This document shows positions 9,031 to 47,000 of a DNA stretch of 64,000 nucleotides, piece after piece. Origin of the DNA: Selaginella moellendorffii (taxonomy: Eukaryota > Plantae > Lycopodiophyta); contig NW_003314274.1 of the NCBI RefSeq assembly GCF_000143415.4, positions 941,788 to 1,005,787 on the forward strand. Reading direction: 5' to 3'. Below the pieces are notes generated by a model that saw only the letters and a list, made by a program, of their open reading frames with translations, had not been told where the DNA came from and did not search any database. How positions within the stretch are numbered: the stretch's first letter is position 1; every line of letters begins with the position of its first letter. Both the position numbers and the translations under genes were made by a program.

Positions 9031-9964
9031 AGTGCACAATAAAGCTTTTCTTCATCCACACATAAGAAGAAAATCTGCATCTTTCCTAAAGGTTTTGAAA
9101 TGTTCAGCTGTACAACAGCTACTCTTTTCTTTACTCTTTTTGTATCACAACACCCCTTTAAAAGAAACACACTGAAGAATATCTATCTTCCTACTGTGTA
9201 AATATTTAGTTTCTTCATGTTGATCAGTGGGATGGAACTGGTTTTGTTTTCTCATTTATTTTTGTGTTCATTTGTTTCCTGCTCAGTTTAACTGATCATT
9301 TTCTCTTAATTAAGTATAAATCAATCTTAAACTTTACATGCCATGGACTAAAGAAAGCAGATTGAACATATAGACAGTGAAGGACAAGCTCATCCCAGTG
9401 AGAGGAAGAAAGACAGTGTGAAGGAGATATTCTACTCTTAGATCAATTGTAAAGTAGGCTTGAATCCCAAAGAAGAGGAAATTAATTGGCACACATGCGA
9501 TTGCAAGTCTGACTTATAACAAAAAATAATACATTAGTTTGTAAAATTCATGCAAATGCAAAGCTTCTTGAAGAGGAGCCATGTCTTTATCAAAACAAGG
9601 TCCACTTTTTTTGTGAGTAGGTTGGTAATAGATATATTTAGAATATGCTTGGATATTTTAAAATATAATCTATCTCTTTATATTCCAATCTAAATCCTGG
9701 ATTATTAGTTAATGTGGAGTTTTTGCACTCATATTTTTCAGCACACAAAATCCTCCTGGTTACTTGCAATTAGATCTCCACTATTTTCTATTTGCTTTTG
9801 TGAATTTGCTAGCGAGGACATCATAGCAAATTCTATTCCATGTTTTGACTACATACAATTTTGATTAACAATCCTCCTAGTGTTTGTACTTGCTTGCTAT
9901 TGCTCTAAGGCACTAGTTCTTGAAAGCACAAAGGTCTATATTTTATAGTAAAGTCATATTAAGT

Positions 9965-13952: not shown

Positions 13953-14674
13953 TGTTGGAAATGCTCGAGTCTGAAATTAAGTCCAAAATTGAGTCTAAAT
14001 ACTAATACAGGTCATAGAGTGAAAATTTAAATCAAAAGGAGTTCCAAAAGTATAGTATGGATAGTGAGGCTAAAATTTTAGTCTTGAAGGAATTCTCCAG
14101 TTAGGGTTGGGACTATAGATTAATAGAGCATGGATTTAAGGAGTGCTAGGGAAACTTCTCAAGGAAGTGCTCATAAAAAGCCCTAAACCCCATTTTGAGA
14201 ATGACCACTTGCAACTTAAGTGAAGTGGTGCCCCATTTAAGTACCATAAGGCTTATTGGTCTTTGCCCCTTCCTACAAAGGTGGGGAGTTAAAATACTGG
14301 TACCAAATTAAAAAATGAACCTAGGGTTTGGGATTTATAGGGTCTTATAAACAAGTTTTGCTATACCATTGGATATTAAGAATTTGGAGGTTTAGTGTGT
14401 TTAGTTGCTTATGCTTTGTGGGTGTAGTACAACCTTAAGTTCAATCTAACCTAAGAAAGGGAATTAGCAAAAAGTTTATGAATTTAGCACATAGCACTTG
14501 TATGTGAATCCATGAAATGTTTACTTTTGTAGTAAGTAGCTAAACTGAATATGACTAAGCCAGAGTTAGTATAATAAGTGTGAATCTTGGGAAAGAAACC
14601 TAACTAAAGCCAAGGCAAAGATGGTTGGATAGACGAGGGAAGTTGGGAAAATAGGAAAAAAATTTATATATTAC
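13953..14674 (+). mobile_element. Old degenerate LTR related to family A
   Basis: Collinear with the 3' part of 17284-18432 (aaatactaatac, ccaaaagtatagta, aaccttaagt.ca.tctaacc) with many C>T/G>A changes; ends approximate. Confidence 0.7.
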
Positions 14675-14990: not shown

Positions 14991-17900
14991 TTAGTCACAT
15001 CCTGAATTGCTATTCAAGGATGGCCAAACCTAAAGGTTCAAAATATCCACCATCATTTGGTTAGCTTGTTTGGAAGCAGCAAGTTTTCTATTGAGCAATT
15101 GCCATAAACTTTATTGAATTGCTAGAGAATGATCACATTCAACTTGCTGTAGCTATTGCAAGAGTGGTTTCCCAGTAAGAGGGGTTACAATGGATAAAGT
15201 GTGCTTCATAATGACCATTTTACTTGATTTCATTATATCTAATTGAATTATAAATCTATCATTTGGTAAGTTGATTGATCAATTCATTAGTTTATTAGTC
15301 AATTCATGATTTATTGAATTCACGAGTTGATTGATCATTTCATGAGTTGGTTGCATTGGTTGATGAGTTGATGATTGATGAACTAAGAAAATTGGAATAT
15401 TGTGAATATTTACAATTAATAATGAAAAATATTATGCTTGCATTGAACAATTGAATATTGATAATATTTCTCTACAAATTTGCCAAGCCACTAGCCTATT
15501 TTTTGGTTGATAGATTACTTTGCATAATAGTTATAACTTTGTGAGTTTGCTTTTACCATTTTTCATTATCAACAAGAGCACCATATTAGTTTAGTGCCAT
15601 TTGTAAGCCTCATCATTTAAGTAATTATTTGAGTTGCATAGTTTTGTAGCATTAAAAATGCCTATATCCTTGCCTATTCTAGCCAACAATTAATATATAG
15701 TTTCTAAACACACTCTTTACTCAAATCTATGTAAGAGCTCATCTCTTGTGCTCTCTAGAATAAAAATATAATTCAAGATGCTGTAGAGTATAGATTTTCT
15801 AAATATTCCCTCTAGAGAATATTCCTAGAACATGATAGTATATTTTACATGGGGTATACTTTTCTTCCCTTGCAAGTTTAGGGCATGAGTGATTAACGAT
15901 GTATTGCTATAAAGGAGTTTTTGGGTTAATTGAGAGTGTGTTTGTGAGTGAAATGGTGTGTAACATATGCATTAGTATAGAAATCATGGTGGGATAAGTC
16001 AATCCTAGCTAACCCATCTAATTTCCATATGTTTTTTTTTAAGTCTTAAAAGTTATAACGAATTTTAGCACAATTCTAATTCTCAATGAGATTCATTGCC
16101 ATTATCGCAAATTTTTTAGTTTTTTTAAGTTTTCTTTGGGTTTTAAGACTCATGGTTAAAAAAATTCATTTTTACATTTTATATATTTTGGCAAATTGAG
16201 TAGATAGGCTTGTATATCTCATCTTTCTATATCCTTTGGTATCACAAATTTACAAATTTAACTTATAAATCATGACATGCAATGAAATTTAAGATATGTA
16301 TAGACAAAATTATGTAAGCGACTAAATTTTCCATTCTACTTTAGTCACTTAACCACACCTCCGACCACTTGGAGGAGTCTCACTCACAACCTCCATAAGT
16401 CCTATTACGGACTTGGGCTTGCTAGCCCCGAGAATGGCATCCCTGCCACTCAACCTTTGCACTTGGTCCAAGCGCTCCATGTGTCTGATCCCATGACTAA
16501 CACCCCCAAGGTACCATCGACATATCAGCCTGTTACACTAAGGCCATACCCCTTCACCTTGGTCACACCGGGGGTCTAACACCACCTGCATCACAGTCCC
16601 GTCTCTCAAGGACTAGGCCATCCGTCCATGAGTGATAATTCCAGATCCACTCCTTAGCATCCTTAGGATGCCTATAGATATAGGGATTAGCCTTCCCCAA
16701 TATCCTTTTTTCAATCCTCCCCAAGTCCCTTTCCGTCCATGGCCGTGTTCGCCAACACTGCCACTAGATCAAGGCCCACAAGCCCGACCACTAAGTCCCA
16801 GGGTCCTCTGGGACTTCCTCCTCACATGACCATATCCTTGGTCTCTACACTAGAGGACGGCTCCTCTTCCTTTTCACAGTCTAGGACTTTGGGGCAACAT
16901 TTCGAAACACCGTGGCCTTACGCGAGCCTTGTGGGTACTCTCCCCGCCTTCCGCCTTTGGGTGCTCTAGCCATGGGCTTAGAGCGAGGTTCCGTTGAGCC
17001 ACGCCAGGTATCCAAGTAGGTAGTGCCACCCACACTTGGACTGGGAGCATCGACCATTTGATCTCCCGGGGGAACTAGAGTCGGCTCTTGAACACTTCAC
17101 CAAGCTACCCCGCTTGTCAGTCTGTATTCACTCTAGTCTTAGACTTCCCAGTGGTTAGTTCATCACCCAACATTGAGTATGGCCTTCTTGGGCCAAACTG
17201 GCCTTTCCTGGGCCAAACTGGCTCCACTGGGCTCCAACCCCCACACTCTCCCTACTATACTTTTGGAAACCCCTGCAGCTCCCTGTAAGGAACCAACTCC
17301 CCGAGATGTCGTAGGCTAAAGGATCCCCAAAAGCTTGACCGAAATGACAAAGAGTTTATCGGATGGGACCAAGTCGAGGATCGAGTCCAAGACCGACTCT
17401 AGGACCGAGTTCGAGATAGAGTCCGGAATCGAGTCCGAGACCGACTCGGGGACCGAGTTCGAGTCCGAGTTTGAGACCGAGTTCGAGACGGAGTCCGAGA
17501 TCCGAAATCGGGTCCGAGACCGAGTCCGAGGTCGAGTCCGAGGTTGGGTCCGAGATCGGGTCCGAGATCGAGTCCGTGATCGAGTCCGAACCCGAATCCG
17601 AAGTCGGATCCGAAATCGGGTCCGAGATCGAGCTAGAGACTAAGTCCAAATACTAATACGGGTCAAGGGGTGAAAGCCCAAAGCGTGCGTCTCCCAGGGG
17701 GGGGGGGGGCTGCAGGGGGTTCCAAAAGTATAGTAGGGATAGTGAGGTCCAGGAACCAGTTTTGAAGGGACTCTCCAGTTGGGCTTCCAAACCGACTTGA
17801 GGTTGAGACTGGGACTGAGGGGCCTTGGGTGGGAGTGAGCATGGACTTGGCTGGTGCCGGAGGGGCCATCCAAGGAAGTGCTCAAGAGCAGCTCCCACTC

Positions 17901-18491
17901 CCGAAAGGGAAACCGATTGCGGTGCTCCCGGCTCATGTGGAGTGGTGCCCCACTTGAGTACCATGCGGCTCATTGGTCCTCGCCCTTCCTAGGGGCTTGG
18001 GCCTTCCTTCGGGATGGAAGTGGGGGGCGAGAGGTACCCATACCGGGCCGCTAGGCCACGGTGTTTCGCCCCGGCGTCCCGAAGCAGGTGTTGCACTCAA
18101 GACTTGGGATTTAGAGGGTCCCATGATCAAGTCTTGTGGTACCAAGGGATGTTAGGAACCTGGAAGCTTGGTGTGCTTGGCTGCTTGTGCTTGTGGGGAG
18201 TGTAGCCGAACCTTAAGTCCAGTCTAACCCGGGAAGGGGGATTGGGAGTGATTTGGGAATCCGTGGAAGGATGGCTAACACTCCGTTGCTCATGCAGTGA
18301 GTAGCTGAAACCAAGTAGGAGCTGGTACCATAGGCGAGAACCTTGGCGAGGGAACTTAGCAAAAACCAAGGCAGTGTTGGACGGATAGGCGAGGTAAGCT
18401 GGCAAGTGGAAAGGAAAAATTTGTGGCTTACAATTTGGTATCGGAGCCTTTATCTCAGTTCTAGCGAAGGATAGAGGCGGATTGCTGGGAG

Positions 18492-21400
18492 ATGGCAAGG
18501 GCAGGGCGTAAGCGAACCCAGGCGGAGACGGAACCTCCGCCGGAGCTGGAGCCTCCGGTTGAACAAGAGGCTATGAATGAGGAATCCTTGCATGAGGAGG
18601 ACTCTAGTGAAAAAACTTCCAAACAGGAGTCCGGTGGCGAGGTTCGGTCGTCCAAGGCTCGATTGGACGTGCTAGAAGGACAATTGGCACAGACCAATGC
18701 CCTGCTGGAGACTCTCGTACGCAAGTTAAAGCGTGACGAGAAGCGGAAGAAAAAGCGAAAGACTGCGGATGAAGGCAGCGCAGAAGGTGCAGACCCTTCG
18801 GCAGGGACTGAGGCAAAACCAGACAAGGTCGAACAGACCGAAGTGGAATCAGTCCCTCAGGCAGTTCCCAAGTACAAACCAAAGCCCCCACCGGTGTTCA
18901 AGGGAGTGAACGACTATAAGGTTGTGGAGGATTGGTTTTACGATATGGAGGACTACTTCCGAGCGTTACGGTTACCGAGCTCGGAGAAGGTCCCATGTGC
19001 AAAACCATACTTGGCAGATAATGCCAAGTCTTGGTGGAGAACCACGGAGGCCAACGAAGGACCGGTGGCCACCTGGGACATGATGAAGGCGAGGATCCGC
19101 GCGACATACGTTCCTCCGAATGCCACTCTGCATCTGAGAGATGAGCTGAGTAGGCTGAAGCAGACTGGAACCATCCAGGAATATGTGAATGGGTTCATGG
19201 CAAAGAGGATACTTGTCACGGACATGGGGGATATGGATGCGTTCCATGCCTTTATATCAGGTTTGCAAACCTGGGCTCGCGGTGCGGTGATGCACTGGAA
19301 CCCGACCAACTACAAGGAAGCGTTGGATGCGGCCATCAAGGTGCATTTTAACGATAACCTGCGAAAGGGGAACACGACGGGGTCGGGATCCATGTTTCAC
19401 AAAGGGGCCAAACCGAGGGGAACATATAGCAGGGGGAAATTCAAGAAGAGTTTCTCTAAGAATGAGTCCTCGGGACTCCTGAAAGGCAAATCCGGTGGCC
19501 AGCGAGCAAGTACGTGGGGGAGTCAAGCGAAAAGAGACAAACCCACGGATAAGAAGGTCAAGTCATATAGTAGCGTGGGAAACAACGTATGCTACAACTG
19601 CCTTGAAGCGGGACACTTTTCGAGGGAATGTCCCTACCCGAAGAAGGCCAGAGCCAATATGGCCATCAAGTCGGGTGAAGTCCAAAATGAGGTATGTGAT
19701 CCAGTCCCTAACTCAAAGTTACTCATTACACGAGCAACTTTGGTAGAGAGTCATTCGCGACATCTACTAGCCCTCCGAGGGAAGCTCGGAGGTAGCTTTG
19801 TTAAGATCCTTATTGACACGGGTGCTTCGGATAATTTTGTGGCTGCAGACATAGTCCGGCAAGCCGGACTAACGGTGCAGCGGCTAGGCGAACCAAGGAC
19901 TATAGAGTTTGTTCAAGGTAGCCAAAGCACCGATGAGGTACTTCGACAAGCGAGAGTCGAAGTGGGGACTTGGAAGGTGGACATGGATTTCACCGTGTTG
20001 GACATGGCGGGATTTGACGTGATCTTCGGAATGGATTGGTTCAATTGATTCGTGGTAGCCCTGCATGGACAAGGTAGAAACCTTGTGGTACTGGCGAATG
20101 CCCAAGGAAGAAGATCTAGGGTGGAGGCCCAAGATCTAAAGGTAGGGCAAAGCAAGGCCAAAGAATCCTGCTTAAACCTGGTGTCCACGAGAGGACAACT
20201 CACTAAAGGAACTAAGGCAGCCTTTTTGTGCTTACTCTCGGTGAAGAGTGACAAAAAGACAGGAACGGAAGAAGTGCCTTTAGTGATCCAGCGAGTGTTG
20301 GACCAATTCCAGGATACCATGCCGGAGGAGCTACCGGCGGGGTTGCCCCCTGCACGACCGATAGAACATAAGATTGAGCTGGTCGAGGGCACTGAGGCGG
20401 TGGTTCGTCCACCCTATCGTTTGAACAAAAAGGAACTCAAGGAGCTCAAGTGCCAACTAGAGGAGTTGGTGGACAAAGGGTATGTTAGGTTGAGCAAGTC
20501 GCCGTATGGGGCGCCGGTGTTATTTGTGAAAAAGAAAGATGGATCTATGCGCATGTGCATAGATTACCGGTTGCTCAACAAATATACCAAGAAGAACAAG
20601 TACCCTTTGCCAAGGATTGAGGACCTGTTCGATAGGTTGGGAAAGGCAAAATACTTCTCGAGGATTGACCTAAGGTCAGGATACTACCAGATCAGGGTAG
20701 CTGAGGAAGATGTCGAGAAGACAACCTGTCGAACAAGGTATGGGAGCTTTGAGTTTCTAGTGATGCCCTTTGGGCTGTGCAATGTGCCGGCAACGTTTTC
20801 GGTGTTGATGAACCACATCTTTGTACCCTATCTGGATCACTTCGTGGTCGTCTATATTGACGACATTCTGATCTATAGCGAGATGCTAGAGGAGCATGCC
20901 GAACACTTGGCGAAGGTGTTTGAGAAACTAAGGGAACACAAACTGTATGCTAAAGAGAGCAAATGTGACTTTGCTCAACAAGAGGTAAAGTTTCTCGGGC
21001 ATGTGGTGGGCCAGGACGGGCTCAAGGTGGACCCGGAGAAGGTCCAAGCGATCCAGGAATGGGATCAACCATCGAATGTACATGAGTTGAGGGCGTTCCT
21101 GGGGCTATGCAACTACTATCGAAAGTTTATCAGACACTATTCGAGAGTAGCCCTGCCTTTAACGGACCAAACAGGAAAAGGGAAGATGGTATGGACAGCA
21201 GAATGCGAGACGGCATTCGTCCACCTCAAAGGGAAGTTGAGGAAGGCTCCCGTATTGGCATTGCCAGACTTTGGTAAGGACTTTGAGGTAGAAACGGATG
21301 CTTCGGACTTTGCGTTGGGCGCAGTTCTGAAGCAAGACAACCATCCGGTAGCGTTCTTCTTGAAGAAGCTGGACAAGGCTCAACGGAAGTGGCCTGCCCA

Positions 21401-21528
21401 TGAGAAGGAATTGTTTGCGGTGGTCAAGGCACTCAAGGAGTGGCGACACTACCTTGGGAGACACTTCAAGGTTTACACGGACAATGTGGCAACGAAACAC
21501 TCTCTTGTCACAGCCCGACCTAAGAGGG
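18492..21528 (+). pseudogene. Element A gag-protease-RT-RNaseH
   Basis: CYNCLEAGHFSREC knuckle; IDTGA protease; YIDD RT; TDAS RNase H; in-frame TGA at 20046-48 (probably CGA>TGA); frameshift at ~21502. Confidence 0.93.
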
Positions 21529-21702
21529 TGTAAACTCCTGAATTTGGACTTCCCGGGAGGTCACCCAGCCCAGTACTATTCAAACCCAAGGACGCTTAAC
21601 TCCAACTATCCCAAGACCCTTAACCAATTGGAAAAGGGGGTGCACCATTATTCAGGGGCCCTTTCCCTCTTTATTTGAACCCCATGGATCGTCTCTCAAG
21701 TC
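21529..21702 (-). mobile_element. Truncated Cassandra-type (5S-derived) LTR inserted in element A pol
   Basis: Minus strand reads AGTTAAGCGTCCTTGGGTTTGAATAGTACTGGGCTGGGTGACCTCCCGGGAAGTCC, matching the 5S rRNA A-box to C-box region; homologous to 50091-50275. Confidence 0.85.
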
Positions 21703-22149
21703 GTGAACGATGGTCTAGCACAGGAAGTGTTGCTGAGGAATCTAGAGGCGCGGGAAGCTCACCAGAGAGGTGAGCTGCCAACGGAAGAGAAAACGGGCTA
21801 TGCAGAACGCAACGGACTCATTTATTACAAGCAAACGAGGGTGTATGTTCCAGAAGGGGAACTAAGGAAGGTGGCCTTAGAAGAGTGTCATGACGGACCT
21901 CTGCGGGGACACGGTGGAGTGCCCAAGACGATGGGCTTACTCAAAAGGAAGTACCATTGGCCAGATATGGCTAAGGACGTCCAAGACTATGTAAAGACAT
22001 GTCCAACATGTCAGCAGGTAAAAGCCGTGACCAAGGCTAGTGGGGGCTTGTTGCAAAGCATCCCAATTCCAGATCGCCCGTGGAAATGTCTTACGATGGA
22101 CTTCATCACGGGACTCCCCCCAAGTGAGGGGTTTGATGCGATATTCGTG
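21703..22149 (+). pseudogene. Element A integrase N-terminal (HHCC) part
   Basis: HDGPLRGHGG...YHWPDM...CPTCQQ...MDFITGLP; continues at 29754 after the family-B insertion. Confidence 0.9.
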
Positions 22150-23755
22150 TGTGAGACACAAAATCCCTAGGCCCCAAAGTGGAGCCGGAAGGGCGCCACA
22201 TGGTAGTGGCCGAAGCAAAAGCCAAACGAGCGTAACACGTTTGGACCAAAAGCTTCAACTTGAAAAGTCAAGAGCGGGAGTGGAACTCCCAATGAAGTGC
22301 TCGAGGAACGAGCACAAAGCGAGCAAAAGGCGAGGCTCCAAAAAGGGACCCAAAAGGACCAACACATGACACGTGGGAGTGTCCGAGATGGACCCGAGAT
22401 GGAGTCCGAGATGGAGTCCGAAGTGGAGTCCAAGGTGGACCCGAGATGGACCCGAGTTGGAGTCCGAAGTGGAGTCCGAGATGGACCCGAGATGGAGTCC
22501 GAGATGGAGTCCGAGATGGAGTCCGAGATGGACCCGAGATGGACCCGAAATGGAGTCCGAGATGGAGTCCGAGATGGACCCGAGATGGAGTCCGAGATGG
22601 AGTCCGAGATGGAGTCCGAGATGGAGTCCGAGATGGAGTCCGAAGTCGAGACCGAGACCGGGACTGAGACCAAGACCGAGACCGAGACCGAGATCGGGAC
22701 CGAGGCCGAGACCGAGCCCGAGCCCGAGCCCGAGCCCGAGTCCGAATCCGAGTCCGAGTCCGAGTCCGAGTCCGGAGCCTGAGGGGGTGAAAGCCCAAAG
22801 CGTTCGTCTCCCAGACCCTGGGGGGTTTGGTGAGCTCCAAAAGTATAGTAGGGGGAGGACTGCAGTGGAGCCAGTTTGGCCAGGAAAGGCCAGTTTGGCC
22901 CAGGAAGGCTAGACCCAGTGTTGGGTGATGAGCTGACCACTGGGAAGTCCAAGACTAGAGTGAACATGGACCGACAAACGGGGTAGCTTGGTGAAGTGTT
23001 CAAGAGCCGGCTCTAGTTCCCCCGGGAGATTGACTGGCCGATGCTCCCAGTCCAAGTGTGGGTGGCACTACCTACTTGGATACCTGGTGTGGCTCAATGG
23101 AACCCGCTCTAAGCCCATGGCTAGAGCACCCAAGGGCAGAAGGCGAGGAGAGTACCCAGGTGGCTCGCGTAAGGCCACGGTGTTCCGAAATGTTGTCTCA
23201 AAGGCCCAGACTGTGGAAAGGAAGAGGAGCAGTCCTCTGGGGTAGTGACCAAGGACACAGTCGTGTGGTGAGGAAGTCCCAGAGGACCGTGGGACTTAGT
23301 GGTCGGGCCTGTGGGTCTCGATCCAGTGGCAGTATTGGCAAACACGGCCAGGGGCAGAAAGGGACTTAGTGGAGACTGACAGAGGGATATTGGGGAAGGC
23401 TATTCCCCTTGTCGGTGGGCATCCTAAGGATGCTAAGGAGTGGATCTGAGATGACCACTCACGGATGGTTTGCCTAGTCTTGGAGGGCCAAGACGGTGAT
23501 GCAAGTGGTGTTGGACCACCAGTGTGACCAAGGTAAATGGGCATGGCCTTAGCGTAACAAGCCGGTACGTCGGTGATACCTTGGGGTGTCGATCATGGGA
23601 TCGGACACGTGGAGCACTTGGACCAAGTGCTAAGGTTGAGTGGCATGGATGCCATTCTCGGGGTTAGCAAGCCCCAAGTCCTGAGTTGGACTTATGGAAG
23701 TTGTCAATGAGACTCCTCCAAGTGGTCAGCCGTGTGGTTAAGTGACTAAAGTAAA
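22150..23755 (+). mobile_element. Family-B LTR (3' end lost in gap) inserted in element A integrase
   Basis: Starts TGTGAGACAC after TCGTG; GATGGAGTCCGA 12-mer and CCGAGN hexamer arrays. Confidence 0.9.
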
Positions 23756-24181
23756 NNNNNNNNNNNNNNNNNNNNNNNNNNNNNNNNNNNNNNNNNNNNN
23801 NNNNNNNNNNNNNNNNNNNNNNNNNNNNNNNNNNNNNNNNNNNNNNNNNNNNNNNNNNNNNNNNNNNNNNNNNNNNNNNNNNNNNNNNNNNNNNNNNNNN
23901 NNNNNNNNNNNNNNNNNNNNNNNNNNNNNNNNNNNNNNNNNNNNNNNNNNNNNNNNNNNNNNNNNNNNNNNNNNNNNNNNNNNNNNNNNNNNNNNNNNNN
24001 NNNNNNNNNNNNNNNNNNNNNNNNNNNNNNNNNNNNNNNNNNNNNNNNNNNNNNNNNNNNNNNNNNNNNNNNNNNNNNNNNNNNNNNNNNNNNNNNNNNN
24101 NNNNNNNNNNNNNNNNNNNNNNNNNNNNNNNNNNNNNNNNNNNNNNNNNNNNNNNNNNNNNNNNNNNNNNNNNNNNNNNNN
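23756..24181. other. Assembly gap (N run)
   Basis: N characters. Confidence 1.
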
Positions 24182-27100
24182 AGGTAATGACCGTGGAAGG
24201 TCAAATACGGAAGAGGACTCAAGTCCTTGAAATGGTAGCCGGGGCTACCTCTAATAAATGCTGGAACAACCCAAGGAGTTGGGGGTGTATTAAGTGGATG
24301 AGTTGGTATTCTCATCACATGGACAAGTAGTCCTAAAGGGCAAAGGTTGCCCCCAGAGAACAAAATCAAGTGTCGGAGTAACGCTTGTGAAAATAATCCT
24401 TTTGAGTAGGACCGGAATGCAAGATGTGTATTCCAGTGAGCTAGTGCCTCACAAGTAGGACCTTACGGGTCGGTGGATTAACCAAGTCCAAAACTGCTAG
24501 ACGACTCAAGTAGAGTCAAGGGAAGGTCCTAAAAAGGACTGAATGAAGCATTTGGACTGAGGTGCGTTGTACCCCACAAAGGATGGGGGGGGATCATAGG
24601 ATCCAAGGATGAGAACAGAGAGTATCTCATCGATGGCAAAATGTGCCATGCTAAAGTTATGAGAAAGGTGTTCCCAGAAGAAAACAACTTTGACATAAAG
24701 TTGTGTGTGACCTCTATGGGGCAGTGCTAATGGTTGGCATGAGAAAGAGCGGTGTTGGTCTTGGCAAAGACTTAGACACGAAGGGGAAATGTCATAGAGG
24801 TAGGCTCGTGGAGCCGATGGTGTGGAGACACCAAATGTGCCAAGGTGTGGTACCTTGAGGCTATGTTGGTGGGTTCATGAGAACCCCTTGCCAAAGGAAT
24901 CCCAATGGAAATGGGAATGGCATAGCCTAAGCTGCAGAGCATGCAGTTGGAGTGTGGTGACCCAGATAGTGATGGAGGTGTGAAAGCACCAAACAATGAG
25001 TTGTAGGACTTGACAACTATGAGGCAACTAAGCAAGAGGTGCAAAATAACTGGTTAAACGAGTAGAAGGTAGCTACCCAAGACTTCTAGTATAGGGAAGT
25101 CGGATATACCCTTACGGGGGATAAGTTGCTTATGTTGCGATATAGTAAGTCAATGTCATAAAAGGAAATACTCATTGTCAAGAAAGCCATCATTGGGACA
25201 CCCGAACACTCTAGAACACCAGAAGGTGGTGTTTGATGTCGCGAGGGCAATGGATAAAGCCCAAGGGACTAAGTCCCTAGCGAATGATGGATAGAAGGTG
25301 CTATCCAAATGTCCAAGGTTTGCGGAGACAGGAGAGGACTGTCTACCCAAATTGGACAAAGCCAAAAATGGAATTTTGGCAAGGCTAGTGATGGGCATGT
25401 AAAGGCCCATAAGCAACAATGTAATCCCAGTGTGTGGGATTATAAGGTGAGCATACCCGGATTGAGGAACCACTCCCTAGGCTATTGGGTAGGTTCATCC
25501 CTAAGAATACTTGCTAAAGCGTGATAGAAAGTGCAAAGTTATCCTCCTGGTCTGGAGGAGAATGACCAAAGGAAAGGTGTGAAGCCAAAAAGCAAGAAGT
25601 AAGGGGATAGAACCGAACCATAAGAATCAAAGGGCATAACCAAGGTTGGTTATGCCAGCTGGGAGTGGAGAATCAAGTGGGGGCTCAAGGGTGTTGCCAC
25701 TAGCAACCGTGATGCCATGGAGAGTCTAAAATATGGAATTGTCCATGTTAGACTATGTGGCATTTGGAAGGCTTGCAAAAAGGGAGGCCTTAGCAAGCTG
25801 AGGGACAGAGTTCCTTCAAGGTTCCCAAAGACGATTCTAGGTAGCTTAGTACCTAGAAAGGCCAAGTGTAAATGGTTCATGGAACGCGCGAAATCAGAGT
25901 AGCGCAGCAGAAGCGTGGTCTTGAAGCTTGCCATGAGGCAAGGCTATCAAGGTTAGGGAGGTAGTTCCCGAGTGTTCAAAGAGAGGGCTTTGAACGAAAG
26001 TCGATGGTCAAGGACTTTCACGCTTATGCAGGAACCATGTTACAGTGATCGGAGGACTTGCCAAGCGAGATTGGCACGTCGGGGGAACAAATACCCTAGT
26101 TGAAGGTGATAACTTCAAAAAGGGTGGGCCATGGGGCCGAGCATGGAGGAGTNNNNNNNNNNNNNNNNNNNNNNNNNNNNNNNNNNNNNNNNNNNNNNNN
26201 NNNNNNNNNNNNNNNNNNNNNNNNNNNNNNNNNNNNNNNNNNNNNNNNNNNNAGTGAGAGGACTTGGCAGTGTGGAGGAACTAGGTTCCTAAGCTGTGAT
26301 CTGTAGCGCGCTTTAAAATAGGTTGGTGCACCGGCGTGGGGAGTCACGCCAGGCATCTAGTGTGATGCCATCCGTAGATGCATATACGGAGGTTGGGTTC
26401 GAGTCCCGACCCTCTAGTGCTTGGGTTCGAGTCCCAAATCACTAGGGCGTGGTGATGGTTTGGAATATGAGGACACTCATATTTCGGTGGTCATGGACTC
26501 TCAGTGGGGAGACTGGTTTGGGCACACCGCCAAGCGAGGGATGCCTCGGAGTCGTGATGCACGGTTAGATTGCTTAGTGTGAAAGCTCGGCATATCTAAC
26601 TTGAACGCTTTGGTGCAAGTGGCACCAAGGTCGTGGTGAGTGAGATGGGGACACCTAATCTCAGTTGCTATGAACCCTTGGCCGTAAGGGCTAGCTTGGG
26701 TGCACCGCCAAGTGTGGGGGATGCCCCCGGGGTTATAGTCAACAACTTGGAGGTCTAGAAGACCAAGTACCTCTTGGCAACTCTGTTAAGGTGCCAAGGT
26801 GAGATCACTAGGTGATCTTATGGCCAGATAAGGATGAGGTCCTTGGTTGGCTAAGGAATGAAGTTCCTGGTTCAAAATGTTGAAATTGAACTGTTTAAGG
26901 TGGTGTGGCTTGGTCGTGATAACCAAGTGGGAAGAGCACCTAAGGGAAATAAACTATGTCCGTGCGATGGCATAGTGAGTCCGAGGAAAGTAGTCTCTAT
27001 AAAAGACCCATGGGAGGGTCACGAAGTTGGGCCGTGGATAGAGCCCATAGCAGAAGATGCTAAAAAGACGTACTAGGGGTGAACATCCTCTGGACTTGGC

Positions 27101-27727
27101 AAAGAAGAGTCTTTGCTATGGAACCGAAACAATACCTCAAGGAGGGAGGTAGAGATTCGATGTTGCTTGGTGCAACAATCAACGGATAGGAGCAAAAGAT
27201 GAGTGGCCAAGATAGGGCCATGGAATCCCTTGGAAGGAATCCAAGTGACAAAGTTAGGCGAGGAACACTAATGTGTTGGACGCTAACAAGTTGCAGGAAA
27301 GGAAGTGTGTTTCCAAGGAGGGATTCCGAAATGCTCCGAGTTGGCGAAAGTGGAAGCTCCAAGGGAGGGAGCGGTAAGGTAGCCAAATGATAGGGCCATG
27401 AACAGCCCTAGCACAAGTATGATAACTGGAACTTTGGCACGAAATAGAAGAGAGGATGATGGTGCCCTCGAGTAGAGAACTTCCTAGGATGGGAAGTGGA
27501 GTTGCACAAAAAGGTGCAAGGCAAGGTGTCGGAGACACCCAGGAAATTGACTCCAAGAAGTCAAAATTCAAAGTTCCAAAGCGCAAAGGTTATATCGATG
27601 GAAATTGAGACTACTCGAGAAGGAGTAGTGGGATTGACTTAGAGAAGGGTCTCTAAGAGGTTTAGCGAGAACTAAACCAATAAAAGGGGAGAACCATTAC
27701 ATGTGGTCCAATCAGTCTCTAATCTAT
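24182..27727. mobile_element. Retroelement-derived internal sequence (includes 100-N gap 26153-26252); part is homologous to the element A 3' UTR
   Basis: 26340-26750 aligns with 30985-31230; remainder has no recognisable intact ORF. Confidence 0.5.
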
Positions 27728-27951
27728 AGACGATGGGCTTACTCAAAAGGAAGTACCATTGGCCAGATATGGCTATGGACGTCCAAGACTATGTAAAGAC
27801 ATGTCCAACATGTCAGCGCGTAAAAGCCGTGACCAAGGCTAGTGGGGGCTTGTTGCAAAGCATCCCAATTCCAAACCGCCCGTGGAAATGTCTTACGATG
27901 GACTTCATCACGGGACTCCCCCCAAGTGAGGGGTTTGATGCGATATTCGTG

Positions 27952-29753
27952 TGTGAGACACAAAATCCCTAGGCCCCAAAGTGGAGCCGGAAGGGCGCCA
28001 CATGGTAGTGGCCGAAGCGAAAGCCAAACGAGCGTAACACGTTTGGACCAAAAGCTTCAACTTGAAAAGTCAAGAGCGGGAGTGGAACTCCCAATGAAGT
28101 GCTCGAGGAACGAGCACAAAGCGAGCAAAAGGCGAGGCTCCAAAAAGGGACCCAAAAGGACCAACACATGACACGTGGGAGTGTCCGAGATGGACCCGAG
28201 ATGGAGTCCGAGATGGAGTCCGAAGTGGAGTCCAAGGTGGACCCGAGATGGACCCGAGTTGGAGTCCGAAGTGGAGTCCGAGATGGACCCGAGATGGAGT
28301 CCGAGATGGAGTCCGAGATGGAGTCCGAGGTGGACCCGAGATGGACCCGAGTTGGAGTCCGAAGTGGAGTCTGAGATGGACCCGAGATGGAGTACGAGAT
28401 GGAGTCCGAGATGGAGTCCGAGGTGGACCCGAGATGGACCCGAGCTGGAGTCCGAAGTGGAGTCCGAGATGGACCCGAGATGGAGTCCGAGATGGAGTCC
28501 GAGATGGAGTCCGAGATGGACCCGAGATGGACCCGAAATGGAGTCCGAGATGGAGTCTGAGATGGACCCGAGATGGAGTCCGAGATGGAGTCCGAGATGG
28601 AGTCCGAGATGGAGTCCGAAGTCGAGACCGAGACCGGGACTGAGACCAAGACCGAGACCGAGACCGAGATCGGGACCGAGGCCGAGACCGAGCCCGAGCC
28701 CGAGCCCGAGCCCGAGTCCGAATCCGAGTCCGAGTCCGAGTCCGAGTCCGGAGCCTGAGAGGGTGAAAGCCCAAAGCGTTCGTCTCCCAGACCCTGGGGG
28801 GTTTGGTGAGCTCCAAAAGTATAGTAGGGGGAGGACTGCAGTGGAGCCAGTTTGGCCAGGAAAGGCCAGTTTGGCCCAGGAAGGCTAGACCCAGTGTTGG
28901 GTGATGAGCTGACCACTGGGAAGTCCAAGACTAGAGTGAACATGGACCGACAAACGGGGTAGCTTGGTGAAGTGTTCAAGAGCCGGCTCTAGTTCCCCCG
29001 GGAGATTGACTGGCCGATGCTCCCAGTCCAAGTGTGGGTGGCACTACCTACTTGGATACCTGGTGTGGCTCAATGGAACCCGCTCTAAGCCCATGGCTAG
29101 AGCACCCAAGGGCAGAAGGCGAGGAGAGTACCCAGGTGGCTCGCGTAAGGCCACGGTGTTCCGAAATGTTGTCTCAAAGGCCCAGACTGTGGAAAGGAAG
29201 AGGAGCAGTCCTCTGGGGTAGTGACCAAGGACACAGTCGTGTGGTGAGGAAGTCCCAGAGGACCGTGGGACTTAGTGGTCGGGCCTGTGGGTCTCGATCC
29301 AGTGGCAGTATTGGCAAACACGGCCAGGGGCAGAAAGGGACTTAGTGGAGACTGACAGAGGGATATTGGGGAAGGCTATTCCCCTTGTCGGTGGGCATCC
29401 TAAGGATGCTAAGGAGTGGATCTGAGATGACCACTCACGGATGGTTTGCCTAGTCTTGGAGGGCCAAGACGGTGATGCAAGTGGTGTTGGACCACCAGTG
29501 TGACCAAGGTAAATGGGCATGGCCTTAGCGTAACAAGCCGGTACGTCGGTGATACCTTGGGGTGTCGATCATGGGATCGGACACGTGGAGCACTTGGACC
29601 AAGTGCTAAGGTTGAGTGGCATGGATGCCATTCTCGGGGTTAGCAAGCCCCAAGTCCTGAGTTGGACTTATGGAAGTTGTCAATGAGACTCCTCCAAGTG
29701 GTCAGCCGTGTGGTTAAGTGACTAAAGTAAAATGGAAAATTTAGTCTCTTACA
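27952..29753 (+). mobile_element. Family-B complete LTR (second copy)
   Basis: TG..CA; flanked by TCGTG on both sides (27947-51, 29754-58); preceded by a duplicate of element A integrase 27728-27951. Confidence 0.9.
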
Positions 29754-31025
29754 TCGTGGTGGTGGACCGATTTTCGAAAATGGCACACTTCATACCCACC
29801 ACAACAGAGGTGGATGCGGAAGGTGTGGCAAAGCTGTTCTTCGAACAAGTGGTTCGAGTGCGGGGAAGACCGGAAGAGATCATCTCAGATCGAGATAAGA
29901 TCTTCATCAGTAGGTTCTGGAGGACTCTCCTGGAACAGTATCGCACCAAGTTGAAATTCAGCACAGCCTATCACCCACAGACAGGTATGGGGTATTGAGT
30001 CAAGTTGTTGGCACTAACACTTCTTGACAGACGGACAAACGGAAAGGGTGAATAGGCAGCTGGAGGATTATTTGCGATGCTATGTCTCGGGAGACCAGAC
30101 CGATTGGGTAAGTCATTTGGGACTTGCGGAAATGTGTTATAACAACTCACCACATTCGAGTATCGGGGTGAGTCCATGGGAAGTCATCAATGGGCGAGCT
30201 ATTGAAGGTCCTGTGGAACTCGGCGTGGCCGAGTATCATGGAGAGTTACCCGCAGTGGAGGCATTCACGGCGGAAAGACTCAACATTTGGAATCTAGTGA
30301 GGGATTCCTTGGAACGGGCTCAACAAAGGCAAACCAAGTACGCGAACCTAAAGCGCCGAGATGTAGAGTTCCAAGCTGGGGAGAAGGTGTGGCTGAACAC
30401 CAAGAACCTCAGGCTACCAAGTGGGATCAGCCGAAAGTTGACCCAAAGGTAAAAATGCATGTATTCCTGTAAATGAATTGATCTTGAGTTCCTTAAGCAG
30501 GTTCGCGGGGTCTTACGAGATTGAGGCACGAATCGGTAAAGTGGCTTACCGACTCCGACTTCCTCGAGAGATGGGGAAGATGCACCCAGTGTTCCATGTG
30601 AACTTACTCAAGCCGTACTTTGAGGATCCGCTTCGCAAGGACCAAGTAAGACCTTTACCTGAGGTTATCCAAGGGGAAGAGGAATACGAAGTCGAGGCCA
30701 TCCTCAATGCGCGCAAGAGCAAGCGACAAGGATGCGAGGTGAGAGAGTTCCATGTGAAGTGGAAAGGATTTCCACACTGCGAAGCAACATGGGAACCAGA
30801 GGAGAACCTAGCGAACGCGCGAGATCTAGTGGAGGAATTTCTGCAAGGCAGAACTCTATGTACTTATGCAAAATTCAATTAAAAATATCAATTTGCAAAG
30901 TTGAGCAAGTGGCATATGTTGGGACCCGAAGGCGCGCCAAAGGTAAGCTAATTAGCATGGGTTGGATAGGTCGACTAGGCGTAGGGCACTACGCCCGACT
31001 CCCCGCGGGGATGTCGAATCCGTAG
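29754..31025 (+). CDS. Element A integrase core, GPY/F region and chromodomain, split by introns 29985-30030, 30449-30500 and probably 30848-30900
   Basis: VVVDRFSKMAHF, SDRD, STAYHPQT|DGQTERVN, KLTQR|FAGSY, YEVEAIL...VKWKGF...TWEPEENL; intron removal restores motifs and frame. Confidence 0.88.
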
Positions 31026-31113: not shown

Positions 31114-33639
31114 AGGTGAGGAGTATAGGGACACCTATATTCCGTTGTCATGGGCTCTTGGCCGGGGAGGCTAACTTAGGCACACCGCTAAGTGGGGGGA
31201 TGCCCCTGGAGACATGGTCAACAAGTCGTAGGATAAAACGAGACGTTCGATGTGGGCATCGAACTTCTTCTATGGGTGGTGGAGTTGTAAGGAACCGACT
31301 CCCCGAGATGTCGTAGGCTAAAGGATCCCCAAAAGCTTGACCGAAATGACAAAGAGTTTATCGGATGGGACCAAGTCGAGGATCGAGTCCAAGACCGACT
31401 CTAGGACCGAGTTCGAGATAGAGTCCGGAATCGAGTCCGAGACCGACTCGGGGACCGAGTTCGAGTCCGAGTTCGAGACCAAGTTCGAGACGGAGTCCGA
31501 GATCCGAAATCGGGTCCGAGACCGAGTCCGAGGTCGAGTCCGAGGTCGGGTCCGAGATCGGGTCCGAGATCGAGTCCGTGATCGAGTCCGAACCCGAATC
31601 CGAAGTCGGATCCGAAATCGGGTCTGAGATCGAGCCAAAGACTAAGTCCAAATACTAATACGGGTCAAGGGGTGAAAGCCCAAAGCGTGCGTCTCCCAGG
31701 GGGGGGGGGGGGCTGCAGGGGGTTCCAAAAGTATAGTAGGGATAGTGAGGTCCAGGAACCAGTTTTGAAGGGACTCTCCAGTTGGGCTTCCAAACCGACT
31801 TGAGGTTGAGACTGGGACCGAGGGGCCTTGGGTGGGAGTGAGCATGGACTTGGCTGGTGCCGGAGGGGCCATCCAAGGAAGTGCTCAAGAGCAGCTCCCA
31901 CTCCCGAAAGGGAAACCGATTGCAGTGCTCCCGGCTCATGTGGAGTGGTGCCCCACTTGAGTACCATGCGGCTCATTGGTCCTCGCCCTTCCTAGGGGCT
32001 TGGGCCTTCCTTCGGGATGGAAGTGGGGGGCGAGAGGTACCCATACCGGGCCGCTAGGCCACGGTGTTTCGCCCCGGCGTCCCGAAGCAGGTGTTGCACT
32101 CAAGACTTGGGATTTAGAGGGTCCCATGATCAAGTCTTGTGGTACCAAGGGATGTTAGGAACCTGGAAGCTTGGTGTGCTTGGCTGCTTGTGCTTGTGGG
32201 GAGTGTAGCCGAACCTTAAGTCCAGTCTAACCCGGGAAGGGGGATTGGGAGTGATTTGGGAATCCGTGGAAGGATGGCTAACACTCCGTTGCTCATGCAG
32301 TGAGTAGCTGAAACCAAGTAGGAGCTGGTACCATAGGCGAGAACCTTGGCGAGGGAACTTAGCAAAAGCCAAGGCAGTGTTGGACGGATAGGCGAGGTAA
32401 GCTGGCAAGTGGAAAGGAAAAATTTGTGGCTTACACTCCCCCTCCCCCCTGGGGGTACGATCGCTTTTGGCTTTCACCCAACAGCCTATATTAGTATTCG
32501 GACTTGGATTCGGAGGACTCGAACTCAAACTCAGACTCGGTCTCGGTCTCGGTTTCAGACTCGGACTTGGTCTTGGTCTCGGTCTCGGTTCCATCTCGGA
32601 CTCCATCTCGGGTCCATCTCGGACTCCATCTCGAACTCTATCTCGGGTCCATTGCGGACTCCATCTCGGGTCCATCTCGAACTCCATCTCGGACTCCATC
32701 TCGGACTCCATCTCGGGTCCATCTCGGACTCCATCTTGGGTCCATCTCGGGTCTATCTCGGACTCCATCTTGGATCCATCTCAGACTCCATCTCAGACTC
32801 ATCCATGTGTCACGTATTGGTCCTTTTTGGGTCCTTTTTTGGAGCCTCACTTATTGCTCGCTTCGTGCTCATTCCTCAAGCACTTTGTTGGGAGTTCCAC
32901 TCCCGCTCTCGACCTTTCAAGGCGGAGCTTTTTAGTCCAAACATGTTGCACTCGTTTGGCTTTCGCTTCGGCCACTACCACGTGGCACCCTTTTGGCTCC
33001 ACTTTGAGGCCTAGGGATTTTGTGTCTCACAAACTATTGATAGTGTATGCTCTTTATAAGTTATTACTTCTTGGATCTTTTTGGTATATGGAACTAACTC
33101 CCTGAGGTGTCGTAAGTTAAAAGATCCCTAGAACCATGACCAAAATAAAGAGTTCATTAGATGAGATTGAGTCCGAGTCTTCCTGATAGGAAATTTGATT
33201 AACTCTTTTTGGTTTTTCATTATAGACTTTAGTTTTCATATGGGAGGAAAGGATGGATATAGGATTAAAGAAAAATCAGGTCATTAACACTAGAATAACA
33301 AGCTCATCAAGAATATAAAAAAAGAGCAAAGGAAGGAGAAGAGCTCAAAAAAAGGTGTTAATATTAGCCATAGAACTCCCATAATAATAAATAACTTTGA
33401 ACTCATATTAACTAATTAACTTTTTTCCACTTTAATAATGGAGTAATTGCATTATAATCACCTTCTAACAATATCCAAAAATCATGCAAGTATATATGAA
33501 TTTTTTTAAAACCCCAAATTGTTGCTAAAAACTATTTTCTATTGGTTGCAATATATAATTGATGTATGCAATAGAATGATGCTAACCAAACATACTTATG
33601 CTTTTTGCATTAACACACAAGCAAGATGAAATGTTAAAA

Positions 33640-37190: not shown

Positions 37191-38258
37191 TTAAGCCTCG
37201 ACAGCTCCCAGCTCGTGTTCTTGTCGCTGCTGCCACCACCTCGGTTTCCATGCCGTTGCTTGTTTCAGCTGGAACGCTTGGTCCAGAGCTCGAAACAAGC
37301 GCTTCCACCCCACGTAAACGCCTTCAATCACCAGCGCCGCCAGCTCCCGTGGCGGATCAACCCGGCACACCGCCCCCTCTTTCGTGAAGCTCAGCACTCG
37401 TTCGCCACTGTCACCATAACTCGCATCGAACTCTTGCTCAGCCTGCGCCTTCTCAAAGCACTCCCGGTAGTCGTCCCCGTCCACGAACGGCGGCTCCTGC
37501 TTCATGCTCTCCACGAACAGCACGTTTGGAAAGGGCGTGACGCCGCCGTGCATCAAAATGGCTGCCAGGAGTATCCTCCCGATCCGACCGTTTCCATCCT
37601 TGAAGGGATGGATGCTCTCAAACTCGAGGAAAAACCGGGACCCGAGCTTGAGTAGCGTCTCGGCCTCCATACCTGTGGATGAGAGCTTTCGGAGCTCTCC
37701 GTTGGTGTCACGGACCAGCCTGTCCAGAGCCGCCGGTATGTCCGACGGCCACATGAAGACGTGCGGCAAGCCAATGGTTGTCGCGGTGAAGGCGATCTCC
37801 TCGTCGCGGCGCAGCCTTCCTGCGATGTCCGGTCGCGTCGATCCAAGGAGCCGCTTGTGCACCTCCAGGATCCCCGGCACACTCAACTCCAAGCACTCTT
37901 GGCTTCCATTCGCCTGGAGCTGATGGATCAGGGCGCTGTGGAGACAGCGCATGGCCTCTCCGGCCTCGCCGCCAGTGCCGCTACTGTCCAGCGCGCCCGC
38001 TGCCATCGCCACCTCGGTCGCCTGGAGCGTTTCGAAGCCCTCGCCCTCGATGTGATTGACCTGGAACAAGAAATGGCCCAGGCCCGTGCGCCGGCCGTAG
38101 GCGTCTGCCCAGCGCCGCTGATCCCGTGGGAGAAGCGCGTACCTCCTCATGGATTCGTGGATCCCTTTGAGCATCTGGCTGGTCCGCGGCACGGGATCGC
38201 CAACGCCGACTCGCTCGCGCCTCCAAAACGGGCACTCCTCCACATCAAAATTCTCCAT
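37191..38258 (-). CDS. Fic (Fido) domain protein, putative AMPylase, copy B
   Basis: Intronless 355-aa GC-rich ORF; canonical HPFKDGNGRIGR; ILEVHKRLL..AGRLR; N-terminal VNHIEG resembling the (S/T)xxxE(G/N) autoinhibitory motif. Confidence 0.9.
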   Translation of the reverse strand: MENFDVEECPFWRRERVGVGDPVPRTSQMLKGIHESMRRYALLPRDQRRWADAYGRRTGLGHFLFQVNHIEGEGFETLQATEVAMAAGALDSSGTGGEAGEAMRCLHSALIHQLQANGSQECLELSVPGILEVHKRLLGSTRPDIAGRLRRDEEIAFTATTIGLPHVFMWPSDIPAALDRLVRDTNGELRKLSSTGMEAETLLKLGSRFFLEFESIHPFKDGNGRIGRILLAAILMHGGVTPFPNVLFVESMKQEPPFVDGDDYRECFEKAQAEQEFDASYGDSGERVLSFTKEGAVCRVDPPRELAALVIEGVYVGWKRLFRALDQAFQLKQATAWKPRWWQQRQEHELGAVEA

Positions 38259-39239
38259 TGCCTTGCTAGACCTTGTTAACTCGCCTTTTATTCTCTGTGT
38301 CCTTTAAAGATCGGTCCCTTGGTTGGCGTTGGCGTTTTCTCCTGGAGCTCTTTGATAACACAGGCTGCTTCACGATCTCACTGGTAACGCGTACTCCCTC
38401 TCCAGAATGGGAGCAATGTCCGAAAGGTCAGCTTTTTCTTCCTCTAAGATGGCTTTCAAGAGCCGAACGAGTCGAGGCCCAACACCGGTGCTTCTGGATT
38501 CGTGATCGTTGCACAGCGAACTCCGAGGGAATCGAGAGCCGGCGGAGGAGCAGAAAGATCCTGGAACATGAGAAAGAAGTTCAGAATCTTAAAAGTCTTC
38601 GCTGCTACCTAGCAAGCTTTGCTCACCAAAGTTCGAGGGTGTTGACAAGTTGAAATTTTGTGGAACTTTACTCACGGCTTGTGGAGAGCTAGCTCTCTGG
38701 TCCTGGCAACAGCAGCAGTGGCTCGCCGTCGGTTTCTTCGAGCTCTTCTAGATCCTCGACACCCTCCTCGAAAAGTTCCAGCTTTGTGCTAATGTAGATT
38801 GGACCCCATCCGTCACGGAGAACGATCCAGCCGCCCAAGGCTCCCACCGGCCACCTCCCTGCCTGTCAAGCCAAAGGTTAAAGCTGGAGCGACGATCTCT
38901 ACCTTTAGAGAGCAGGCGATCCTACCATAGAGTTTGGCAGCTCGTAGAGCGGCAAACAAGAGTGCGAGCTGCCGCTTTGCGCAATTCTCCGTGCGTCGGG
39001 GCGTCCATGTCCCGAGCTCCTTTGTAGCAAGTGTCGCTCGGAGGAACAAGGTGCATCCACCAAGAAATACCCCGTTGATCATATTCCTATTGAATGATCT
39101 CTATGATCACGCTAGCTACCATTGCGACGACGCGAATGGACGTCCTTAGAATTATCTGGCACGTACTCGGAGATAACCTGCGTTGCGGCATGACTATCTG
39201 GATGATATCGGCATGATCCATGAATATATTCCGAAGCAG

Positions 39240-45120: not shown

Positions 45121-47000
45121 TGTGAGACACAAAATCCCTAGGCCCCAAAGTGGAGCCGGAAAGGGTGCCACGTGGTAGTGGCCGAAGCGAAAGCCAAACG
45201 AGTGTAACACGTTTGGACTAAAAGGTCTGACTTTGAAGGTCGAGAGCGGGAGTGGAACTCCCAACAAAGTGCTCAAGGAACGAGCACGAAGCGAGCAATA
45301 AGCAAGGCTCCAAAAAGGGACCCAAAAAGGACCAACACATGACACATGGAAGTGTCCGAGATGGAGTCCGAGGTGGACCCGAGTTGGAGTCCAAGATGGA
45401 CCCAAAGTGGAGTCCGAGATGGACCCGAAGTGGAGTCCGATATGGAGTCCAATATGGAGTCCGAGATGGACCCAAAGTGGAGTCCGAGATGGACCCGAAG
45501 TGGAGTCCGATATGGAGTCCAATATGGAGTCCGAGATGGAGTCCGAGATGAAGTCCAAGATGGACCTGAAGTGGAGTCCGAGATGGAGTCTGATATGGAG
45601 TTCGAGATGGAGTCTGAGATGGATCCAAGATGGACCCGAAGTGGAGTCCAAGATAGAGTTTGATATGGAGTCCAATATGGATCCGAGATGGACCCGAAGT
45701 GGAGTTCGAGATGGACCCGAGATGGAGTCCGAGATGGACCTGAGATGGAGTCCGAGATGGACCCAAGATGGAGTCCGAGATGGACCCGAGATGGAGTCCG
45801 AGATGGAGTCCGAGATGGAACCGAGACCGGGACCGAGACCGAAACCGAGACCGAAACCGAGACCGAAACCGAGACCGAGACCGAGACCAAGATCGAGTCC
45901 GAGTCCAAATCCGGGACCGAGACCGAGTCTGAGTCCGAGTCCAAGTCCGAGTCCGAGTCCGAATACTAATACGAATACTAATACAGGCAGTTGGGTGAAA
46001 GCCCAAAGTGATCATCCCCCAAGGGGGGGGGGGGGGGAGGCTGCGGGGGGCTCCAAAAGTATAGTAGGGAGAGTGTGGGGGTTGGAGCCCAGTGGAGCCA
46101 GTTTGGCCAGGAAAGGCCAGTTTGGCCCAGAAAGGCTAGACCCAGTGTTGGGTGATGAGCTGACCACTGAGAAGTCCAAGGCTGGAGTGAACACGGACTG
46201 ACAAGCGGGGTAGCTTGGTGAAGTGTTCAAGAGCCGGCTCTAGTTCCCCCGGGACATCGACTGGCCGATGCTCCCAGTCCAAGTGTGGGTGGCACTACCT
46301 ACTTGGATACCAGGCGTGGCTTAACGGAACCTCGCTCTAAGCCCATGGCTAGAGCACCCAAGGGCAGAAGGCAGGGAGAGTACTCAGGTGGCTCGCGTAA
46401 GGCCACGGTGTTCCGAAATGTTGTCCCCAAAGGCCCAGACTGTGGAAAGGAAGAGGAGCAGTCCTCTGGGGTAGTGACCAAGGACACAGTCGTATGGTGA
46501 GGAAGTCCCAGAGGACTGTGGGACTTAGTGGTTGGGCCTGTGGGCCTCGATCTAGTGGTAGTGTTGGCAAACACGGCCAGGGGTAGAAAGGGACTTAGTG
46601 GGGACTGACAGAGGGATATTGGGGAAGGCTATTCCCCTTGTCGGTGGGCATCCTAAGGATGCTAAGGAGTGGATCTGAGATGACCACTCAAGGATGGTTT
46701 GCCTAGTCTTGGAGAGCCAAGACTGGGATGCATGTGGTATTGGACTACTAGTGCGGCAAAGGTGATTGGGCATGGCCTTAGCATGACAAGCTGCCATGTT
46801 GGTGGTACCTTTGAGTGTTGGGATCAAACACGTGGAGCACTTGGACCAAGTGCAAATGTTGAGTGCCATGGATGCTATTCTCGGGGCTAGCAAATCCCAA
46901 GTCCTGAATTGGACTTATGGAGGTTGTGAATGAGACTCCTCCAAGTGGTCGAAGGTGTGGTTAAGTGACTAAAGTAGAATGGAAAATTTAGTCACTTACA
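45121..47000 (+). mobile_element. Family-B solo LTR
   Basis: TG..CA with perfect TSD TCATG (45116-20, 47001-05). Confidence 0.95.

Follow-up and report, generated by a model that had tools for sequence, protein, structure and literature searches.

A Selaginella chromovirus family with two small introns in its integrase and a probable need for splicing

A Ty3/Gypsy chromovirus family of Selaginella moellendorffii harbours two integrase introns that its DNA copies retain but part of its transcripts lose by splicing; in our view the family probably needs splicing for active integrase and retrotransposes from unspliced RNA. The copy that serves as reference lies in a stretch of 64,000 nt of contig NW_003314274.1 (hereafter the window, in which all positions are counted). 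The element is 7529 nt long by arithmetic, and its features, with the candidates discussed below, are as follows.

17284..18432, plus strand: 5' LTR, 1149 nt, poly-G tract of 13 (LTR comparison)
18394..18458, plus strand: candidate leader intron, 65 nt, GAG/GTAAGC ... CTTTATCTCAG/, prediction only, reaching from the last part of the LTR across the primer-binding site
18436..18447, plus strand: primer-binding site, tRNA-Met type (sequence inspection)
18492..20048, plus strand: gag (Retrotrans_gag, zf-CCHC) and protease in one frame (Pfam); in-frame stop at 20046-20048 in the window copy
20049..21528, plus strand: reverse transcriptase and RNase H, frame shared with gag; frameshift near the end in the window copy
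21529..21722, plus strand: solo LTR of another family, 194 nt, beside a deletion of ~60 codons relative to homologue P0128
21723..22149, plus strand: N-terminal part of integrase, with H2C2 zinc finger and first catalytic Asp (Pfam)
22150..29753, plus strand: nested block of ~7.6 kb inside integrase, flanked by target duplication TCGTG; it contains a pair of LTRs from a second family, gaps in the assembly, and a repeat of the integrase piece that precedes it
29759..29984, plus strand: integrase exon A, with rve core, second catalytic Asp and the HPQT motif at its end (Pfam and translation)
29985..30030, plus strand: intron 1, 46 nt, GT-AG, phase 1, 5-nt direct repeat at its junctions
30031..30448, plus strand: integrase exon B, with catalytic Glu, remaining core and start of the SH3-like domain (translation)
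30449..30500, plus strand: intron 2, 52 nt, GT-AG, phase 1, AG/GT at both junctions
30501..30882, plus strand: integrase exon C, with SH3_Tf2-1 and chromodomain (Pfam); stop at 30880-30882
30848..30900, plus strand: AT-rich stretch after the chromodomain, 53 nt, GC 26%, GC..AG ends
30941..30948, plus strand: donor-like AG/GTAAGC in the 3' untranslated region, GT at 30943
31272..31284, plus strand: purine-rich tract preceding the 3' LTR (sequence inspection)
31286..32435, plus strand: 3' LTR, 1150 nt, poly-G tract of 14, 99.0% identity with the 5' LTR

The LTRs end in TG..CA, both flanks of the element read CTCCC, a 5-nt target duplication, and the primer-binding site is one that we take to match initiator tRNA-Met. 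Pfam domains follow one another as gag, zinc knuckle, protease, reverse transcriptase, RNase H, integrase zinc finger, rve, SH3_Tf2-1 and Chromo. Judged by these features, the element is a Ty3/Gypsy chromovirus: LTR ends, 5-nt duplication, domain order and C-terminal chromodomain all fit. Pairwise comparison of the LTRs found 10 substitutions and one indel in 1150 nt, in keeping with the near-identity described in the first-pass annotation, and at the rice rate this identity presumably corresponds to an insertion age of roughly 0.3 million years. The window copy itself is dead, having a protease stop, a frameshift, the solo LTR with its deletion at the end of RNase H, and the 7.6-kb nested block. 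A Ginger-type DNA transposon, that is, a stand-alone integrase gene between terminal inverted repeats, was considered and rejected: the split integrase continues the element's pol across a target duplication, and a matching LTR follows.

The surroundings of this copy are intricate. Ahead of the second nested LTR (27952), and around N gaps, stands a duplicate (219/224) of the integrase piece of the host element, and the region 21926-29753 is likely, from its arrangement, to be a tandem duplication or a haplotype mis-join rather than a normal two-LTR element. Between 16309 and 33034 there are three levels of nesting, the element lying inside a minus-strand LTR of the second family and itself holding LTRs of the second and a third family, which suggests mutual targeting among LTR families. 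In contigs of two sequencing runs (X16 and X19) the second LTR family comes after a purine-tract region like the element's own (31244-31288), and its LTR and 3' untranslated pieces are ~70-75% identical to those of the element (26370-26545); a coding match was sought in its block at 24182-27727 and none was found there. It is possibly a non-autonomous partner or a recombinant of the element. Long degenerate 6/12-nt tandem arrays of variable length occur in LTRs of both families (17370-17650, 22380-22780, 28180-28750, 45350-45970).

The two inserts that the first-pass annotation placed within conserved integrase motifs are found at 29985-30030 and 30449-30500. Intron 1, bordered as CAG/GTATGG...CACTAAC...TTGACAG/A, sits four codons ahead of the catalytic Glu, and the D-35-E spacing is obtained only across it (31+1+3 residues); intron 2 is bordered as AAG/GTAAAA...AAGCAG/G. 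In the unspliced reading, translation meets a stop in each of them (29996-29998 and 30450-30452), and an intron-less homologue aligns to the integrase region as three pieces in three frames, with breaks at both inserts, which bears out the earlier statement that the inserts hold stops and that their removal restores the frame. Their size was also rightly likened to that of host introns, those of the window's papain-like gene being 53, 61 and 57 nt long. By their GT..AG ends, host-like size, removal in putative RNA and presence in DNA, introns 1 and 2 are of the U2 type.

Relatives help to place the inserts in time. In a set of 62 homologues, the first split motif is intact in 56 of the 56 proteins matched by pattern, and the second in 46 of 49, the other three being intact by eye. 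A frame-breaking insert is present in 0 of 37 loci at junction 1 and 0 of 35 at junction 2 among metagenome Gypsy DNA loci (79 related loci, 42 of which align in integrase), a comparison that an in-frame insert would escape. Since the motifs are intact in relatives, the intron-less integrase would be the ancestral state, and the introns appear to have been gained in the lineage of this Galahad-like element. These relatives are distant: best identities are 49-50% for exon B and 63-64% for the reverse transcriptase-RNase H part, and 63% among the 79 metagenome loci. The near-length search found no close relative from another family or species, and viral contigs were also empty. A decayed Gypsy element at ~53800-58500 (53816-58480) stops short of the integrase core. 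An intron derived from an introner would be expected to recur as many similar copies at unrelated places; within the 64-kb window, no second copy of intron 1 or 2 was found. The short direct repeats at both introns would fit gain by staggered repair or by AG/GT insertion, and are too short to choose between them. A hairpin that covers the intron-1 branch point was entertained as a regulatory signal and dropped, as it folds no better than shuffled sequences (z -0.29); all 10 predicted folds had z between -0.97 and +0.66.

Eight of 24 listed sequencing runs were aligned to the element, four of them contig sets from four studies (X15, X16, X17 and X19) that are RNA by presumption only. Exact junctions are present in these putative-RNA contigs, whereas the first-pass annotation had named the lack of spliced junctions in any expressed member as a ground for giving up its claim. 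An exact 46-nt GT..AG skip of intron 1 is seen in X15 and X17, the intron being kept in X16 and X19 (thus skipped in 2/4 putative-RNA runs), and an exact 52-nt skip of intron 2 is seen in X15, X16 and X17, that intron being kept in X19 (3/4). Both introns are skipped in a single 1083-nt contig of X17, and a contig of X16 skips intron 2 only. Spliced X17 and unspliced X19 have 22 of 26 exon variants in common, so that we are dealing with nearly one haplotype in spliced and unspliced forms. The X16 contig begins in foreign sequence, and some spliced RNA would therefore come from truncated copies under other promoters. Raw runs on record as RNA gave 8, 1 and 0 reads in ~9.2 million each, that is, very low expression. 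One 150-nt read of X22, a recorded RNA run, appears to carry the exact 46-nt skip, and it is the only read over intron 1 (1/1); this skip is deduced from depth bins that sum to 150 nt, as joints are listed only from 3 reads up. Depth bins further imply that one read each in X22 and X23 runs ~25 nt into intron 2 and leaves at ~30473 (30449-30473), which may point to an expressed copy that is truncated or to a cryptic 3' end.

The count of introns proposed at first was larger. Two stand, of 46 and 52 nt; the third, a GC-AG intron after the chromodomain, and the further donor at 30943 do exist as an AT-rich 53-nt stretch and as AG/GTAAGC, but are unsupported in splicing: the only contig covering 30848-30900 (1/1; from X19, and also keeping introns 1 and 2) reads through it without a joint, its final AG is missing in some genomic copies, and the same single X19 contig reads through the donor. 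Contigs of X15 and X17 end at 30834 and 30839 without a loose end, and X22 has 3 reads beyond; the contig ends hint weakly at an early 3' end, for which 30848..30900 may be the poly(A) region.

Had the inserts been confined to the window copy, this too would have told against the first reading, but they are present in X1 DNA, and the published SM1-Galahad consensus is broken likewise. In X1, 18,394 contigs fall on a 1.6-kb stretch and cover both inserts, with variants inside intron 1 that keep the donor, and with differing flanks at the LTR start. The inserts belong to a many-copy family and not to one locus. No joint skipping intron 1 or intron 2 is found in this run among the 15 listed of 19 joints, whose depth of 93-296, against ~1 million summed, reaches down to about single-copy depth, in data consisting of contigs, which lose rare variants. 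Relative to its neighbours, X1 depth is 0.50 over the intron-1 bin and 0.79 over intron 2; we read this reduction as polymorphism, because exon B sites with clustered variants dip as low as intron 1.

A family of this kind has been described before. In its published account, SM1-Galahad is ~7.5 kb long, with LTRs of 1076/1146, poly-G of 11-25 nt and a Met primer site; its consensus has a 3885-bp gag-pol ORF that ends in core integrase, followed by ORFs of 316 and 309 bp, with the chromodomain in the last, and it is present in hundreds of copies ~95% alike (PMC3350952). No intact copy was reported there, and its sister SM2-Galahad has an unbroken 4731-bp ORF (PMC3350952). In the window element, the LTRs are 1149/1150 nt long (as against 1076/1146), the main ORF is ~3881 nt by arithmetic estimate (against 3885 bp), and the ATG-started frames behind introns 1 and 2 measure 318 and 309 nt in the window copy (against 316 and 309 bp); the chromodomain comes last in both. 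The comparison with SM1-Galahad is one of sizes and described features, and in these the window element matches it. The words 'intron' and 'splic' are absent from the main text of PMC3350952, which reports extra short ORFs instead. Introns in Galahad or inside a Gypsy integrase are unreported in the literature searched, which lay outside subscription journals, Repbase and the large REXdb supplements, and splicing-dependent integrase expression is apparently an unreported variant in a family already described.

How might such an element work? From unspliced RNA one would expect Gag-PR-RT-RH with a stump of integrase ending before the Glu of D-D-35-E; such RNA, because intron 1 lies ahead of that residue, would be unable to give active integrase. 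RNA keeping only intron 2 would yield an integrase core without SH3 domain and chromodomain, and fully spliced RNA would yield the complete integrase with its chromodomain. Because the introns persist in new insertions (LTR identity 99.0%), unspliced RNA would be the likely template of reverse transcription, and spliced RNA, we infer, a poor or impossible one. The division of labour proposed at the outset, with unspliced RNA packaged while spliced RNA supplies integrase, follows well from DNA-kept introns and spliced junctions, the packaging step being presumed.

As to why spliced RNA escapes copying, our single best guess, a tentative one read from the DNA, is the predicted leader intron at 18394-18458. 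Its strong donor stands 39 nt ahead of the LTR end, its pyrimidine-rich acceptor 11 nt past the primer site, and its removal would delete the primer-binding site, making spliced RNA unprimeable. One may then imagine, with similar caution, an intron-proof element: the leader intron would strip the primer site from every spliced mRNA, so that only unspliced RNA would be copied, and host-size introns would then have been gained in the integrase core, splicing becoming the on-switch of integration. On the sense strand of the element proper, AG/GTAAG is confined to two distinct sites, an after-the-fact observation. The second LTR family lacks the same leader donor. In the predicted fold the donor is paired with the LTR end (z -0.97), and it may thus form part of a stem instead of serving in splicing. 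Two old relatives with similar LTR motifs were also looked at after the fact: that at 53816-58480 has TCTCAG directly behind the primer site, and that at 13960-14670 has, where the leader donor would be, a sequence resembling a donor but starting with GG. Selective packaging is an alternative to the leader intron, as is early polyadenylation in the AT-rich stretch by analogy with EVD (PMC5580714), which we regard as rather doubtful.

There might also be no special lock-out at all, spliced RNA being copied too, and intron-less copies being rare, short-lived or missed. This is unlikely, but it draws on the very features of the X1 data given above (contigs that lose rare variants, 15 of 19 joints listed, intron-1 depth half that of its neighbours), and low splicing efficiency is plausible, 2 of the 4 putative-RNA runs keeping intron 1. 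Against it, no such copy appears among the listed joints to about single-copy depth, though intron 1 has diverged between copies, and an intron-less copy would yield integrase from every RNA and should, by inference, spread. Retrotransposition from unspliced RNA with a barrier to copying of the spliced form is the reading that we retain.

Only spliced RNA allows exons B and C to be read as integrase, and their variants tell whether this mattered. Silent changes make up 24 of 34 variants in the two exons, against 0.345 expected (transitions; p 2e-5), and 9 of the 11 that segregate in X1 (p 0.002); the counts come from the best-supported 40 of 132 and 40 of 50 variant rows, with intron, 3' UTR and LTR rows left out, and the p values are indicative, as sites are not independent. 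Variants behind intron 1 being mostly silent, the spliced integrase frame was under selection. This weighs on the proposal that the inserts killed the integrase of a master copy, the family having since hitch-hiked on a sister such as SM2-Galahad with splicing as an incidental matter. That SM1-Galahad is described without an intact copy and SM2-Galahad with an unbroken 4731-bp ORF (PMC3350952) would suit such a history, as would very low expression and the four other lesions of the window copy; but silent variants prevail among intron-bearing copies (24/34; 9/11), both inserts are removed exactly at GT-AG, and two independent inserts spliceable by chance would be required, all of which makes it improbable. 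It is very improbable that the skipped contigs derive from a few intron-less genomic copies, or from DNA in the runs, rather than from splicing: the contig runs are RNA by presumption and their variants are 3-4% off the window copy, but no skip joint is among those listed in DNA run X1, a near-identical haplotype is skipped in X17 and kept in X19 with X16 mixed, and one read in recorded RNA run X22 fits the 46-nt skip.

To our knowledge, plant LTR elements are said to be intron-free except for Ogre and EVD-type cases. Ogre, of the Tat clade of Ty3/Gypsy, is described as having an intron in its DNA that is spliced from a subset of transcripts to give the complete polyprotein (PMC6317226, PMC12786077); as in the window element, splicing is needed for an enzyme and the intron is kept in DNA. 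The Ogre or Copia type of splicing, in which the Gag:Pol ratio is set by an intron between gag and pol, does not apply here, both introns lying inside integrase and gag to reverse transcriptase forming one frame. The Ty1/Copia elements EVD and BARE1 have spliced and unspliced RNA pools with distinct jobs, and spliced RNA stays uncopied because it terminates early, in EVD, or because of its transcript class, in BARE (PMC5580714; PMC3735527). In these, as described, splicing removes coding sequence to give a short Gag, and unspliced RNA encodes all enzymes, whereas the unspliced RNA of the window element is unable to encode active integrase. Conserved splicing was reported as not seen in Arabidopsis Gypsy elements (PMC5580714). 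Cer1 of C. elegans is a Gypsy element with spliced mRNA and unspliced genomic RNA, splicing yielding an accessory export protein and not integrase (PMC10309623). Foamy viruses use unspliced RNA as their genome and a spliced mRNA to express an essential enzyme, and their major donor, like the candidate leader donor, is an LTR site upstream of the primer site (PMC5035957); however, these enveloped animal viruses are described as splicing past gag to an unbroken pol, without small introns in pol. Two host-size introns within the integrase coding sequence set the window element apart from Ogre, foamy virus, EVD and BARE1 as these are described. In Penelope-like elements introns survive retrotransposition, a likely Selaginella case included (PMC8557442), but these, unlike the window element, are without an LTR/integrase cycle.

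That introns are lost via reverse transcription has served as the classic proof of retrotransposition, and reporter assays are built on it (PMC12786077). A family of hundreds of copies with two tiny integrase introns means that ordinary introns can be acquired and retained by an LTR element, and an element so built must sort its genomic RNA from its mRNA by splicing state. It offers a natural system for studying the origin and fixation of new introns, and the way in which plant elements with a single ORF keep the RNA to be translated apart from the RNA to be copied. Annotation based on ORFs files such intron-bearing families as 'no intact copy'.

Elsewhere in the window, two intron-less ORFs of the Fic/DOC family lie on the minus strand beside PPR gene clusters (7660-8637 and 37191-38303), a bacterial-type domain in a plant window, duplicated together with the PPR block. 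Also on the minus strand, a multi-exon gene at 59100-63800 has many intron candidates of 45-60 nt and a C-terminal match to NIF-like phosphatase, and at 9960-11100 proline-rich extensin-like repeats and a cysteine-rich block, recognized by eye, stand next to a jacalin-type lectin-like domain.
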